From NCBI GenBank assembly GCA_965224195.1, contig OZ245040.1, forward strand, positions 1,888,001-1,952,000: 64,000 bases of DNA, written 5' to 3'. Positions 2,460 through 27,812 of the stretch are shown here, in pieces (position 1 is the first letter of the stretch; every line of letters begins with the position of its first letter). The position numbers and the translations under genes are program-made. The DNA is from Nitrosopumilus sp. (GTDB lineage: Archaea > Thermoproteota > Nitrososphaeria > Nitrososphaerales > Nitrosopumilaceae). A model generated the notes under the pieces. That model was not told the DNA's origin. It did not search any database and saw only the letters and a program-made list of their open reading frames with translations.

Positions 2460-3524
2460 TTGATTAGAGTTTCAGACTATCATTATCATGTACATTCCCA
2501 GACTACCAATAGAGATTATGACGTTATCAGAGTAAATGAAAAATGGACGTGCACCTGTCCTGACCACAAGTATCGAAACAGAATTTGCTGTAAGCACATT
2601 CATGCAATAGAATTTTCAATCAAAATTAGAGAGGAGGTACGAGAAAGAAATAAGGTTACAATCGAACCTGTGACCATTGATTCTTGTCGCTTCTGTCATG
2701 GCAAGAACATTGTAAAAAATGGTGTTCGTAAAAACAAGCATACAGCAATTCAAAGATTCTCATGTTCAGATTGCCACAGAACATTCTCAATGAATCTAGG
2801 CTTTGAGAAGATGAAACACAATCCTAAAGGAATCACTACTGCCATGCAGTTGTATTTCTCAGGTGAATCATTAAGAAACGTGGCTAGATCCCTCAAACTT
2901 CTAGGCATGGATGTATCACACCAAACTATCTACAACTGGATTGAAAAATATACCAAACTCATGAATCAATACTTAGACAAGATAGTTCCCCAAGTAGGTG
3001 ATGCGTGGCGAGCTGACGAGATTTATGTAAAAATTCGTGGTGAATTAAAATATGTATTTGCAATGATGGATGATGAAACCAGATTCTGGATTGCTCAAGA
3101 AGTTGGTGACAGAAAAGAAGGACATAACGCAGGAGGGTTACTACAAAAGGCAAAACAAGTTACACAAACAAAACCTAAAGTGTTCATCACAGATGGTCTA
3201 GGATCATATCATGAAGCATACAAGAAAGAATTTTGGACATTGAAAAGACGTAACAGAACATTACACATCAGACATATTCACTTGCAAGATGACATGAACA
3301 ATAACAAGATGGAACGACTCAATGGAGAAATTAGAGATAGGGAAAAAGTAATGAGAGGAATAAAGAAAAAAGATTCAGTTACACTAACTGGTTATCAGTT
3401 GTTTCACAATTACATTCGACCACACAGTGCATTAGGTGGATTGACACCTAGTGAAAAATGTGGTATGGAGATTCAAGGAGACAATAAATGGATTACATTA
3501 ATTCAGAATGCTAGTAAGAAATGA
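2460..3524 (+). CDS. IS6-family DDE transposase with N-terminal SWIM finger and IS1-like Zn ribbon
   Basis: CTCPDH...CKH SWIM motif; CxxC...CxxC; WRADEIYVK, FITDG, NNKMERLNG, HNYIRPH. Confidence 0.92.
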   Translation: MIRVSDYHYHVHSQTTNRDYDVIRVNEKWTCTCPDHKYRNRICCKHIHAIEFSIKIREEVRERNKVTIEPVTIDSCRFCHGKNIVKNGVRKNKHTAIQRFSCSDCHRTFSMNLGFEKMKHNPKGITTAMQLYFSGESLRNVARSLKLLGMDVSHQTIYNWIEKYTKLMNQYLDKIVPQVGDAWRADEIYVKIRGELKYVFAMMDDETRFWIAQEVGDRKEGHNAGGLLQKAKQVTQTKPKVFITDGLGSYHEAYKKEFWTLKRRNRTLHIRHIHLQDDMNNNKMERLNGEIRDREKVMRGIKKKDSVTLTGYQLFHNYIRPHSALGGLTPSEKCGMEIQGDNKWITLIQNASKK

Positions 3525-4105: not shown

Positions 4106-4969
4106 TGATGAACACATTGATGAATTCAGAACACACATGAAAGATCACATGAAGGACCGCATGATGGACAAAGCCCATGATAAACCACATATGGATTATG
4201 ATAGACTATGTGCATTAGCAGATTCTGAACGTGCAGCAGAAATTGATGATTCAGAAAAACTTGACAGACTTTCTAAATGGTGTGATATGAGCGCTGAAGA
4301 AAGAGAAGACTATAAGATGAAACATCATGATGCCATGAAAGACAAAGCTCATGACAAAATGTCTGATGCAGCAAAAGACAAAATGAAAATGAAATTATCT
4401 GACAAATCTGACCGTATCAAGGCAATGATCATGGACAAACATGACATTTCTGATGAGCGTAGAGAAGAAATCAAGATGAAATACATTGAGAAACATGGTG
4501 ATCTGACTGACGAGAAAAAGTCTGAACTCAAAATGAAATTCAAAGATCATATGAAAAATATGAGAATGAATATCTCTGATGAGCGAAAATCTTCAATTCA
4601 TGATAGACTAGCTGAGATGAAAGCCTTCAAGGCAGAACTCCGCGATAGAGCATCTGAAATGACTGACGAGGAAAAACAGGAACTTGGAGCAGAATTCATT
4701 GAAAAGGCAAAAGACATGCAATTAGCATGGATTTCCCCACGCACACAAATGACTGCCGGCATTGATGCTGGAGATGTAGAATGTAGAGAAGGATTTAGCC
4801 TGGTAATGAAAGCATCAAACGGTGTTGCAATGTGCCTTAAAGCAGATACAGCACTTAAGTAATGAATTTGATTTCCTTCATAGATTCCTTTGTGCATGTT
4901 GCAATGTGCCTTAAAGCAGATACAGCACTTAAGATGATAGATAGAGGACTAGTAGTTCCTGCTAACTAA
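4106..4969 (+). pseudogene. Met/His/Asp/Lys-rich exported protein remnant with Nitrosopumilus-type Cys-pair C-terminal domain
   Basis: Frame is open back to the IS end, so the gene is 5'-truncated. The C-terminal SPRTQ..C.EG..LVMK..G..MCLK..TALK|MIDRG domain is interrupted by an insertion at 4860-4896. Confidence 0.75.
4823..4933 (+). repeat. 37-bp exact direct repeat flanking a 37-bp unique insert
   Basis: TGTTGCAATGTGCCTTAAAGCAGATACAGCACTTAAG at 4823-4859 and 4897-4933. Confidence 0.95.
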
Positions 4970-4988: not shown

Positions 4989-5223
4989 AATTGAAGCCCT
5001 TCTGGCCCATGCCCTACTTGATCCTTTATCTGGCCCATGATTATAGAGGTGATACTATGACTATACCTGACTATTCTCTAGAGGATTTGTCCGACATTTC
5101 CCCCTTTGAAAATTACACTAGTGCGATCAGATATGTTGTAAATTATCCTGGTATTTTATATTCAGAAATAAAATAAAAATTTGAATTGATTTAGTAAAAT
5201 TATCTGAGAAATTAATTTTTACG

Positions 5224-6393
5224 TTAACCATTAATGAATTCATTGAGTCTAGTTTGACTTTCATCATCTTCAATATAGAAAGATTCATTTCTATTTTTTA
5301 CAATTTTTTGTTTTTTTAACCATGATGAAATAGTTGAAGCACGTCTTCTTGCTGTACTTGCTGATAAATTTGTACTATATTCTAAAAATTTAGTAATGTC
5401 ATTAGTGGTAAATTGGGTTTTAGAGTCTGATTTTAGATAAAGAAAAAATGCTTTGACAACAGGAAGTTCTTTAATTAAAGTATCAATTATGTCATTACGA
5501 TCCCCATCTGAATACGTCCCTATCTTATCTACAAGTTTAGTAGAGACATAGTAATTGTTAGATTTTTCAATTAACCCCAACATTTCTGCTGCATCTAAAT
5601 AATACATTGCCATTCTAGGACGTACACTCATTATTTTTGCTAATTTTTTAGCAGTTATTTTTTCAGATTTACAATAAAATGGAATATCCAGTACTTTATC
5701 AAAATTATTGGCGTCTGGAACAGATTTTGTATCTAAATAAAATGTATTATCCTTATTTGATGAATTTTTTAGTAATAATGAAAGATTTTGCTTATCTTTC
5801 CATTCTTGATTATTTGATGAATTTTTTAATTTTTTAGTAATATGTTCCGTTAATGCAATTATTTCTGGATTATATTCTGAAAACGTTAATGATTTTTGGT
5901 TTGTAGTACTAGTGATATTTTGAATATTATTTTGACGTATCAATGGTAATGAGCTTTTATTAAACGAACACATTGTCCAATCTAATTCACGTTCAATTTT
6001 TCTTTTAGCAGCACCCAATGTATGTAATATGTCCGAATAAGATTCATTTTCAATATCAAATAATTTAGCTGCCTTGATCGTTTCTGTAGTATCTAAAAGA
6101 AATTTAGGTATTGAAATAAAAGAAGTACTAAATTTAGTCAAAATATCTAAGGATTTTTCCAATTCAGAGTCTTCTTTTTTATGAAGTAAATCCAAATAGG
6201 TACTTTCGGCAAAAGCTAACATAAAGCTATTTTGAACAGATTTTTTCATTTTTTCTTGATTTTTTGATAATTCTAAAAATACTGAGTCTACCATTTTTAA
6301 TATTGGATTTAATACATCTAGACTTTCTTGCATGTCTTTTTGATATCTACGTTCGTAAATTTTACCTAGTGCTTTGAATATCTCATAGGACAC
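5224..6393 (-). CDS. helical protein with C-terminal tandem winged helices; likely 3' half of a frameshifted gene
   Basis: YYLDAAEMLGLI and STARRRASTISSWL wHTH motifs; frame stays open upstream past 6560. Confidence 0.75.
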   Translation of the reverse strand: MSYEIFKALGKIYERRYQKDMQESLDVLNPILKMVDSVFLELSKNQEKMKKSVQNSFMLAFAESTYLDLLHKKEDSELEKSLDILTKFSTSFISIPKFLLDTTETIKAAKLFDIENESYSDILHTLGAAKRKIERELDWTMCSFNKSSLPLIRQNNIQNITSTTNQKSLTFSEYNPEIIALTEHITKKLKNSSNNQEWKDKQNLSLLLKNSSNKDNTFYLDTKSVPDANNFDKVLDIPFYCKSEKITAKKLAKIMSVRPRMAMYYLDAAEMLGLIEKSNNYYVSTKLVDKIGTYSDGDRNDIIDTLIKELPVVKAFFLYLKSDSKTQFTTNDITKFLEYSTNLSASTARRRASTISSWLKKQKIVKNRNESFYIEDDESQTRLNEFING

Positions 6394-22325: not shown

Positions 22326-23831
22326 ATGTATTCTGTAGTTTTAACAGAGTTAGGAATCTCAGTTTTCAATGATGGAAAACTAGACAAAGCATTTTCATTC
22401 TCAAATCCTGTAAAAGAGTACCTATTAGTCAAAAATAAAGAATCAAAATTAAATGAACTTGTAAATTATTTAGCATCAACTCAAAGAGGATTTTCTGTTA
22501 GTGATGAATCATTACTTGCAATTCTAAAAAAATATTCAATTGATTGTCACTTAATGGAAGAATCTGAATTAGATGAAATTCAAACAAACAAACCACAGAT
22601 TATTGTAGATTCAGGTTTTGCATCAAATCTACAAGATACACTTGGAAAATTAAGAGAATTTGCACTGGAATTATCATCATCAAAAGTTACCGAAGTTTCA
22701 GAAAGTCCAGATCTTCACATCATTCAAGCAATTAATTCTCTAGATGAAATTGATAAAATTGCAAATGGACTAAGTTCAAGGCTAAGAGAATGGTATGGAT
22801 TGCATTTTCCAGAACTAGATAATATTATTGACAGCATTAATGGATATGCACAAATTGTAATGGCAGGAAAAAGAGAATCATTAACTAAACAAATTTTTGA
22901 AGAAGCTGGTTTTCCAGAATCAAAAGTAGAGATGTTGTCATTAATTTCATCAAAAAGTAGAGGTGGAGATATTTCAGACATTAATTTATCAATAGTTCAA
23001 TCAATTGCAAAACAAGTTTTAGATTTTCACGAGTTACGTAAGAAACTTGAAGAACATGTTGAAGCAGAAATGCAAAATATTGCACCAAATACTTCAGCAA
23101 TTCTGGGTACTGCAGTAGGTGCAAGGATTTTAGGAAGAGCTGGAAGTCTCAAAAAAATGGCATCTCTTCCTGCTAGTACAATACAAGTTCTAGGAGCTGA
23201 AAAAGCATTATTCAGATCATTGAAGACAGGTTCACAACCGCCTAAACACGGATTATTATTCCAACATGCAATGGTTCATGCTGCTCCAAGATGGCAAAGA
23301 GGGAAAATTGCTCGTGCAGTAGCTGCCAAGGCAGTAATCGCTGCAAGAGTGGATGTTTACGGTAAGGGATTAAATCAAACTTTACTTGATAAACTCAACA
23401 TCAGAGTTGATGAAATTGGCAAAAAATATGAAAATCCTACTGAAAAAGACATGAGACCATCTCCATCATTTAGAAGAGAAGGCGGCTTTAGAGATAATCC
23501 AAGAAGAGGTGGAGGCCGAAACAGAGGTGGAGACCAAAGAAGAGAAGGCGGCTTTAGAGATAATCCAAGAAGAGATAGTGGAGATAGAAGAGAAGGCGGC
23601 TTTAGAGATAATCCAAGAAGAGATAGTGGAGATAGAAGAGAAGGCGGCTTTAGAGATAATCCAAGAAGAGATAGTGGAGATAGAAGAGAAGGCGGCTTTA
23701 GAGATAATCCAAGAAGAGATAGTGGAGATAGAAGAGAAGGCGGCTTTAGAGATAATCCAAGAAGAGATAGTGGAAGAAATGATGAAAGAACAGATTCAAA
23801 CAAAAAGAGAAAGAAGTTTGGAAGAAGATAA
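22326..23831 (+). CDS. nop5: C/D box sRNP protein Nop5 with repeat tail
   Basis: LREWYGLHFPEL, PASTIQVLGAEKALFR, PKHG. Confidence 0.96.
   Translation: MYSVVLTELGISVFNDGKLDKAFSFSNPVKEYLLVKNKESKLNELVNYLASTQRGFSVSDESLLAILKKYSIDCHLMEESELDEIQTNKPQIIVDSGFASNLQDTLGKLREFALELSSSKVTEVSESPDLHIIQAINSLDEIDKIANGLSSRLREWYGLHFPELDNIIDSINGYAQIVMAGKRESLTKQIFEEAGFPESKVEMLSLISSKSRGGDISDINLSIVQSIAKQVLDFHELRKKLEEHVEAEMQNIAPNTSAILGTAVGARILGRAGSLKKMASLPASTIQVLGAEKALFRSLKTGSQPPKHGLLFQHAMVHAAPRWQRGKIARAVAAKAVIAARVDVYGKGLNQTLLDKLNIRVDEIGKKYENPTEKDMRPSPSFRREGGFRDNPRRGGGRNRGGDQRREGGFRDNPRRDSGDRREGGFRDNPRRDSGDRREGGFRDNPRRDSGDRREGGFRDNPRRDSGDRREGGFRDNPRRDSGRNDERTDSNKKRKKFGRR
23472..23774 (+). repeat. 48-bp coding tandem repeat (RREGGFRDNPRRDSGD), about 5 copies plus 1 partial
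   Basis: Units start at 23538, 23586, 23634, 23682 and 23730; partial copy at 23472. Confidence 0.95.
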
Positions 23832-26901: not shown

Positions 26902-27812
26902 TTAGCCTTCACAGGTTTTTTCAATTCAGCAATTACCCAATCCTCAATGAATTGGCAATTAGTAGGACTAATTTCCCCCTCAAGTGAACATTTCTGCTCA
27001 ACAGGACAAACTAAACATGGTGCATTTTCAATAGATTGTGTACTAATTGGGGTTTTCTTTAAAATTAATTTGTATGTCCAACGATTGTTCTCAAGAAGTT
27101 TTTCTCTAGTAATTGTACCCATTCTTTCAAGTTTTAATGCTAATCTAGAACCAACTTGATTAGTAAGTTTAAGTTTTTTCCATAATTCACTTTGGAACAT
27201 TCCATCAGACTCTTTCTCAGCTAAAATATCACAAACTTTGTTAGTCAGTCTTTCCATGTCAACTTTTTCGATTTGGAAATTTTCAATTTCTTCATCTGAG
27301 AGTTGTTCTTCTAATTCTTCTTCAAGTGTTAATTCGGCAATTCTTTTTTCTTCTTCTAATTCTTTTTTGGTTAATTTCTTTACTTTAACTGGTTTTTCTT
27401 CTACTTTCTTTGCAGGTTTTGCAGCAGCTTTCTTTGCAGGTTTTGCAGCAGCTTTCTTTGCAGGTTTTGCAGCAGCTTTCTTTGCAGGTTTTGCAGCAGC
27501 TTTCTTTGCAGGTTTTGCAGCAGCTTTCTTTGCAGGTTTTGCAGCAGCTTTCTTTGCAGGTTTTGCAGCAGCTTTCTTTGCAGGTTTTGCAGCAGCTTTC
27601 TTTGTAGTTTTCTTTGCAGGTTTTGCAACAGCTTTCTTTGTAGTTTTCTTTGCAGGTTTTGCAGCAGCTTTCTTTATAACTTTCTTAGTAGCTTTCTTTG
27701 CTGTTTTCTTTACAGATTTTGTATCTAAAATTTTCTTTTTCTTTTTTAATGCGTCAAGATCTGCCTTAATTTTTTCTGCTTCTTCAATTAGAGTATCTTT
27801 TTTCTTTGCCAT
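26898..27812 (-). CDS. TFE-beta / RNAP III C34-like wHTH-FeS protein with histone-H1-like N-terminal repeats
   Basis: QSELWKKL wHTH plus PCLVC..KC..ISPTNC..IEDW FeS motif. Confidence 0.85.
   Translation of the reverse strand: MAKKKDTLIEEAEKIKADLDALKKKKKILDTKSVKKTAKKATKKVIKKAAAKPAKKTTKKAVAKPAKKTTKKAAAKPAKKAAAKPAKKAAAKPAKKAAAKPAKKAAAKPAKKAAAKPAKKAAAKPAKKAAAKPAKKVEEKPVKVKKLTKKELEEEKRIAELTLEEELEEQLSDEEIENFQIEKVDMERLTNKVCDILAEKESDGMFQSELWKKLKLTNQVGSRLALKLERMGTITREKLLENNRWTYKLILKKTPISTQSIENAPCLVCPVEQKCSLEGEISPTNCQFIEDWVIAELKKPVKAK
27405..27710 (-). repeat. 24-bp coding tandem repeat (AAAKPAKK x8 perfect, plus degenerate units)
   Basis: tttctttgcaggttttgcagcagc repeated at 27405-27596. Confidence 0.95.

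Follow-up and report, generated by a model that had tools for sequence, protein, structure and literature searches.

A natural insertion scar in a Nitrosopumilus gene, probably left by off-target Cas1-Cas2 spacer integration

Introduction

Off-target integration by Cas1-Cas2, outside CRISPR arrays, is known, and the event reported here is an unusually well-documented natural case. It lies in a 64,000-nucleotide (nt) stretch of the genome of Nitrosopumilus sp. (the window; C1:1888001-1952000 of the genome designated G000), where a 37-nt piece of an ordinary protein gene is duplicated around a 37-nt insert; the duplicated piece is referred to as the unit and the whole arrangement as the scar.

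The closest described systems are the "neo-CRISPR" loci formed by off-target Cas1-Cas2 integration in Escherichia coli (Nivala, Shipman and Church 2018, Nat Microbiol). The scar resembles these in having a spacer-sized insert and a repeat-length duplication outside arrays, in a cell with an active adaptation module. As described in articles that cite it, however, the neo-CRISPR study relied on the type I-E system of E. coli, over-producing Cas1-Cas2 and supplying oligonucleotides, and its natural cases, in two other species, were only circumstantial, whereas the scar arose naturally, in an archaeon that has type I-G and I-B systems, and about 30 sister events accompany it. The dependence of neo-CRISPR integration on IHF sites has no counterpart shown for the Nitrosopumilus scars.

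In vitro, Pyrococcus furiosus Cas1-Cas2 performs leader-independent full-site integration at non-CRISPR sites (PMC6698737). The shared features are paired transfers on opposite strands one repeat length apart and some repeat-border bases; the differences are that a plasmid assay with 30-bp spacing was used there, while the events described here are fixed in a chromosome, are spaced by 36-37 bp (30 bp in two events) and have one repeat-like unit end. For arrays that stand isolated, three origins have been proposed, off-target acquisition among them (Shmakov et al. 2020, CRISPR J, as cited in PMC13142298). Such isolated mini-arrays, in the outline given by the citing article, likewise have a repeat-spacer-repeat form far from cas genes with off-target acquisition as an explanation, but in the scar the "repeat" is coding sequence of a conserved gene for which empty sites exist, making its origin demonstrable. 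Integration at internal repeats of a true array also occurs away from the leader-proximal repeat, but not in unrelated genes. Literature searches found no published natural genome with tens of such scars and no link to type I-G or I-B systems in Nitrosopumilus.

Results

Structure of the scar

A repeat search of the window identified two copies of the unit, TGTTGCAATGTGCCTTAAAGCAGATACAGCACTTAAG, that are 100% identical and lie 74 nt apart from start to start (Table 1); an exact repeat of 37 nt cannot arise by chance. The intervening insert reads TAATGAATTTGATTTCCTTCATAGATTCCTTTGTGCA. As the T at position 4897 extends the match between the insert and its donor, the boundary between insert and second copy is genuinely ambiguous, and the arrangement can be read as a 37-nt duplication around 37 nt or a 36-nt duplication around 38 nt. 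The open reading frame (ORF) of the target gene now has the C terminus ...NGVAMCLKADTALK, with a TAA stop codon donated by the insert 11 codons ahead of the native stop, and a frame of 35 amino acids (aa) at 4862..4969 terminates in VAMCLKADTALKMIDRGLVVPAN, the sequence with which the intact paralogous protein also ends. No Pfam match was obtained for the intact paralogue of the target protein. The structure, coordinates and sequences given in an initial annotation of the window, which was made from the sequence alone, were all correct, including the one-base ambiguity and the resumption of the native C terminus after the second copy.

Table 1. Coordinates of the scar, its empty sites and donor, and the related loci of the genome
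Feature	Coordinates	Strand	Basis or remark
Target gene, truncated, 241 aa, Lys/Asp/Met-rich	window 4137..4862	+	ORF list; no Pfam family
Duplication copy 1 (36 nt if from 4824), native coding VAMCLKADTALK	window 4823..4859	+	100% identical pair
Spacer-sized insert, 37 nt (38 nt with T4897), antisense of DUF7482 gene	window 4860..4896	+	donor match
Duplication copy 2	window 4897..4933	+	100% identical pair
Displaced native 3' end, MIDRGLVVPAN + stop, beyond truncated ORF	window 4934..4969	+	ORFs, alignment
Unit in first paralogue	C1:44904-44940	-	zero mismatches
Unit in second paralogue	C1:1019919-1019955	+	zero mismatches
Donor of insert	C1:234869-234905	-	36/37 match
Cas1 gene	C1:714347-715189		Pfam Cas_Cas1
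Cas1 gene	C1:947177-948019		Pfam Cas_Cas1
Cas1 gene	C1:1455266-1456123		Pfam Cas_Cas1
Array A, 90 repeats of 36 nt	C1:707205-713740		spacers 34-42 nt; 36/37/38 nt = 30/31/12 of 89
Array B, 69 repeats of 30 nt	C1:941990-946529		spacers mostly 36-37 nt
Array C, 132 repeats of 37 nt	C1:1457181-1466783		spacers 32-48 nt; 35/36/37/38 nt = 38/40/20/7 of 131
30-nt unit	C1:912673-912768		gap 36 nt
30-nt unit	C1:1228750-1228848		gap 39 nt
Further units (34-39-nt duplication, 34-40-nt insert), n = 31 in all	C1: 3949, 173581, 682088, 690211, 703813, 739057, 882675, 886994		genome scan
Further units, continued	C1: 898236, 907258, 911485, 912527, 1090869, 1159163, 1238977, 1277616, 1326527, 1363425, 1490408, 1541050		genome scan
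Further units, continued	C1: 1542932, 1549643, 1639458, 1692970, 1698884, 1718775, 1745573, 1973078, 2047816, 2052402, 2053230		genome scan

Empty sites in paralogues and orthologues

The unit is present four times in the genome at zero mismatches, twice in the scar and once in each of two near-identical copies of the target gene. Both paralogues run from ...AACGG through a single unit into ATGATAGATAGAGG... and on to the stop codon without interruption, and when the scar was aligned with these two paralogues and two orthologues, one clean gap of 74 nt was obtained. In a search of 40 relatives with 1044 nt of the locus as the query, a match was found in 19 of the 24 genomes of the same genus, 13 of which carry a single unit and no insert, as the subject shows 32-37 nt of overlap between the match to query positions 1-723 and the one that starts at 761; no relative among the 40 searched has the insert here. 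A separate scan of species-representative genomes returned 47 orthologous loci, with Nitrosopumilus, Nitrosopumilaceae, Nitrosarchaeum or Thaumarchaeota in their titles, and in each of them the match extends to residues 190-192 of 192. Orthologues were thus found to lack the insert, and because empty sites survive in both paralogues and orthologues, the event is provably an insertion.

Origin of the insert

Apart from the insert itself, the only match in the genome at three or fewer mismatches is a 36/37 match on the minus strand of a gene 1.66 Mb away. This gene encodes a 487-aa protein of secreted type with a DUF7482 domain (348.6 bits), and the insert corresponds to its antisense strand. 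The initial annotation had called the insert foreign, a description that gives way to this self match; it had also named nearby host DNA as a source that would speak for template switching, but with the donor 1.66 Mb away, local template switching is not the explanation. An exact 37/37 match, including a T at the one position where the donor differs, was found in two metagenome contigs whose flanks identify them as orthologues of the DUF7482 donor gene. The source of the fragment is therefore either the resident gene, which would imply one change since then, or a close relative's DNA. Exact searches of viral contigs gave no match for this insert or for four other ectopic inserts (0/5), and the insert junctions were not found in the metagenomes searched.

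CRISPR-Cas equipment of the genome

Three Cas1 genes were identified (scores of 309.6, 304.6 and 243.8 bits), each adjoining a large array and further cas genes (Table 1), and no Cas1 beyond these array-linked genes was found in the genome. Models from NCBIfam assigned the array A locus to type I-G, with a Cas4g/Cas1g fusion (714.7 bits), Cas3g, Csb1 and Csb2; a Cas2-like frame between the fusion gene and array A was recognised by eye. The array B locus is of type I-B (Cas6, Cas7/Csh2, Cas5b, Cas3, Cas4 and Cas1b), and that of array C is I-B-like (Cas7/Csh2, Cas5b, Cas3, Cas1, Cas2 and Cas4). The statement that the window lacks cas genes holds for Cas1, as none of the three genes lies there; other cas families were not scanned in the window. 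Comparison of the unit and insert with the resident repeats (36 and 37 nt) and spacers (34-42 and 32-48 nt) gave a match, the geometry of the scar being that of one repeat plus one spacer of either array C (37 + 37) or array A (36 + 38). The genome thus encodes three Cas1 proteins together with Cas2 and Cas4.

Two minor features of the CRISPR loci were also recorded. Spacers 24 and 25 of array B are the same as spacers 28 and 29 (C1:943550-943919), an internal duplication of the array. At C1:1626150-1626330, a long way from any cas genes, there is a degenerate mini-array of the I-G type, in which a 39-nt spacer lies between a complete repeat variant and a second repeat that is truncated.

Recurrence across the genome

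C1 was scanned for sequences repeated directly at periods of 40-130 nt, and those outside arrays with no other repeats nearby were termed isolated; events inside the three arrays, and those that have a further repeat, 20 nt or longer, at a distance of up to 150 nt, were left out. The latter filter drops protein-repeat regions and also the sites at 912527, 912673, 1326359 and 1326527, which were inspected by hand. Among 46 isolated repeats of at least 28 nt with nonoverlapping copies, 33 have a period of 70-76 nt, while no other period occurs more than twice. Under a strict definition (unit of 34-40 nt and gap of 32-40 nt), which excludes 9 of 39 events, there are 30 units, of which 20 are exact, eight have one mismatch and two have two mismatches; both units and gaps measure 34-39 nt. 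Two extra units of strict geometry, at 912527 and 1326527, are close to other events, and two events form a 30-nt class with the geometry of array B. No isolated site with two spacers was seen.

An uninterrupted paralogous copy, and hence a true empty site, exists elsewhere in the genome for 9 of 34 events. Empty sites in relatives were sought for three other events: that at C1:1363425 has a clean empty paralogue within the genome itself, and for those at 739057 and 1228750 the far flank is not conserved. Inserts match the genome itself in 8 of the 39 ectopic events, compared with none of the 288 array spacers at a match length above 24 nt, a difference that is expected if only expressed self-targeting spacers are purged or lethal. 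A blastn search of the 30-nt array against a phage collection returned nothing. For 16 of the 39 events, no open frame of 100 aa or more covers the site, and several of the rest, the scar among them, are within approximately 20 codons of a stop codon. In a presumably compact archaeal genome, these positions point to real insertions filtered by selection.

Several further features of the scan were noted. Of the further units, eight are found in one 41-kb region (882-923 kb) that may be a hot spot or an island tolerant of insertion, and the unit at 912673 starts 75 nt past the end of a 36-nt-type unit. Among the nonstrict events, those at 129726, 778950 and 1717459 are protein repeats, and those at 798295 (43/32) and 923061 (46/34) are possibly odd integrations. 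Over-long duplications of 54, 46 and 43 nt surround inserts of 35, 34 and 32 nt at C1:1326359-1326501, 923061-923186 and 798295-798412, respectively; these may reflect a ruler that slipped during integration, or have some other cause.

Relatives with and without Cas1

Among the 121 genomes examined from the genus, Cas1 was identified in 52, a count that includes G000. Four genomes were compared for isolated units. G000, with three Cas1 genes and three arrays, has 30 strict units in 2.06 Mb scanned (14.6 per Mb). G123, with two Cas1 genes, a 36-nt array of 48 repeats that is very like array A and a 30-nt array of 61 repeats, has five strict units and one 30/39 unit in its first 0.52 Mb. G018, which gave no Cas1 match and has a six-repeat array of the I-G type, has two strict units (with two and three mismatches) and three near-strict units in 0.8 Mb. 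G010, with neither Cas1 nor an array, has no strict unit in its whole 1.36 Mb and only eight isolated repeats in all. The order G000 > G123 > G018 > G010 agrees with a Cas-dependent origin. G018 was considered as a second negative control and rejected in view of its orphan I-G-type array and two strict units.

Two other properties of G018 were noted: its first 800 kb has 54% G+C, compared with 31-34% in G000 and G010, though it is filed in the same genus, and the first and fifth spacers of its array (252741-253141) are identical.

Discussion

Proposed origin of the scar

The scar is best read as the product of a resident Cas1-Cas2 complex that carried out full-site integration of a spacer off target, and not as a working array; we place the probability of this reading at roughly 0.88. 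Off-target acquisition had been proposed in the initial annotation, and it gains support from the cas genes, the array lengths, the empty sites, the distant donor, the approximately 30 recurrences and the absence of units from the Cas-free relative. We infer the enzyme and the order of steps as follows. A prespacer of 37-38 bp would have been cut from a DUF7482 gene, which could be that of the cell itself or an almost identical allele in a related strain. Instead of the leader-proximal CRISPR repeat, Cas1-Cas2 would then have attacked an ordinary gene within its 3' end, with two strand transfers, one per strand, separated by 36-37 bp. Gap filling would duplicate the 36-37 bp between the attack sites, giving the unit-insert-unit arrangement and shortening the gene by 11 codons. 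The module responsible could be the type I-G Cas4/Cas1 fusion with Cas2 (36 + 38) or the I-B-like module of the 37-nt-repeat array (37 + 37); we lean slightly towards type I-G, because a 36-nt repeat of the I-G type is common to all three unit-bearing genomes. The product would be a dead-end scar, presumably without CRISPR RNA (crRNA) function.

One end of the unit, (T)GTTGCAAT, is similar to the shared repeat end GCTTCAAT/GTTTCAAT, and the unit starts (T)GTTGCAATG in the orientation in which the repeats start GCTTCAATGG (array A) or GTTTCAATCC (array C, reverse strand). A motif defined post hoc, GYTNCAAY, has a full match close to one end of the unit in 6 of 30 events, this one included, compared with 0.19 expected. 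The GTGC/GCAC dyad of the unit, to which the initial annotation had drawn attention, carries no weight: the unit folds no better than its shuffles (z 0.34 and -0.82), while a 7-bp stem (z -2.81) forms in the repeat of the type I-G array.

A number of observations weigh against an origin by Cas1-Cas2. When the real 10-nt repeat ends were used in an a priori test, at least 7 of 10 positions matched in 6 of 32 events against 2.56 expected, a weak enrichment (binomial p 0.04); the scar itself scores 7/10 against the repeat end, for which the random probability is 0.08, and there is no enrichment at the opposite unit end. By eye, no leader-like sequence lies beside the unit when compared with the three leaders. 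The insert has a T where the donor gene has a C, its single difference, and no consensus protospacer adjacent motif (PAM) was seen beside the eight self protospacers, this one included; overlaps between array spacers supplied too few flanks to yield a consensus. Among the relatives, G018 has two strict and three near-strict units yet gave no Cas1 match. Given its orphan I-G-type array, these units may date from an earlier period in which this genome still had an adaptation module. The gradient comprises few comparisons, with four genomes, two of them (G123 and G018) scanned in part, and one Cas-free genome (G010) scanned whole. The last points come from sequencing runs: of 23 runs in the form of Logan contigs, among which the highest word share was 0.69, four were compared with the locus, and contigs in three of these four show the form that skips 74 nt, while none in the four bridges a unit-insert junction.

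Alternative explanations

Repair of a chromosome break without Cas proteins, in which a staggered break is filled in and a stray 37-nt chromosomal fragment is captured by end joining or template switching, is improbable. The self-like insert, the lack of a PAM and the weak repeat resemblance of this target are what would be expected of it, but it gives no reason for duplications to cluster at 36-37 and 30 nt around inserts of 34-39 nt, the values of the resident arrays, nor for the absence of units from 1.36 Mb of a Cas-free relative, and the donor is distant.

A chimeric or mis-polished consensus at one of the three gene copies is improbable to a similar degree. The multicopy nature of the gene and the public contigs, with their exclusively 74-nt-skipping form and unbridged junctions, are in its favour. 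The same contig sets contain the donor locus as a separate contig and match the unique flank from 5004 to 5300 perfectly. However, a depth of 287, compared with 87 in the flank, suggests that the three gene copies have been collapsed into one contig. As contigs drop minority paths, they neither confirm nor refute the insertion. An artefact would not make exact repeat-length duplications around spacer-length inserts some 30 times; moreover, 31 of 39 inserts are absent from the rest of the genome, 10 of 30 strict events have one or two mismatches, suggesting age, the events appear depleted from coding sequence, and the same structures occur in an independently assembled species (G123).

Another integrase, leaving a casposase product or an insertion sequence (IS) excision footprint, is highly improbable. 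Target duplications of casposons and IS elements are far shorter than 36-37 bp. All three Cas1 genes lie beside arrays and cas genes with no further Cas1 found, and the insert is 37 nt of a DUF7482 gene without terminal inverted repeats or element genes. On the other side, IS elements flank the target gene, Cas1 matches of approximately 200 bits in open frames of approximately 410-420 aa are common in relatives, and casposons are recorded in the genus in the literature, PMC6563490 included.

A working nascent array that is transcribed, processed and able to gain spacers is likewise highly improbable, and the term "nascent array" in the initial annotation was an overstatement: the repeat-spacer-repeat form, the one unit end resembling the conserved repeat end and the de novo birth of arrays by an off-target route, as proposed in the literature, are outweighed by a single spacer with no isolated site having two, by the lack of a hairpin or any leader resemblance, and by a spacer matching the cell's own DUF7482 gene, from which an active crRNA would risk self-targeting.

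Implications of recurrent off-target integration

It is likely that off-target spacer integration, far from being an uncommon mishap, is a recurrent mutational force in CRISPR-bearing Nitrosopumilus, leaving dozens of scars per genome that fade after cas genes are lost. The scars would break or truncate genes and be filtered by selection, giving a measurable genomic cost of CRISPR adaptation. They would also constitute a natural record of target choice by type I-G (Cas4/Cas1 fusion) and I-B integrases, in effect a catalogue of target sites for these archaeal adaptation modules, and a standing reservoir from which arrays could be built, with a bearing on the origin of new arrays and new repeat sequences. 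In the literature considered here, off-target integration has so far been seen chiefly in vitro and with E. coli proteins that were over-expressed, with natural cases circumstantial or proposed. If the gradient from Cas-rich through orphan array to Cas-free holds in more genomes, rates of gain and decay could be estimated.

Neighbouring genes and other repeats

The target gene exists as three near-identical copies in the genome, two of which adjoin transposase genes. The copy in the window adjoins a DDE_Tnp_IS240 + SWIM transposase gene (window 2460-3524, + strand), and the copy at C1:1019.4 kb is truncated at its 5' end and lies beside a DDE_Tnp_4 transposase gene (L004 10-930). An IS element of approximately 440 nt is present in at least 15 copies in the genome. 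Two tandem repeats were found elsewhere in the window, one of 48 nt in 4.9 copies with 100% identity (23538-23811) and one of 24 nt in 11.3 copies (27404-27708); both are probably coding repeats unrelated to the scar.

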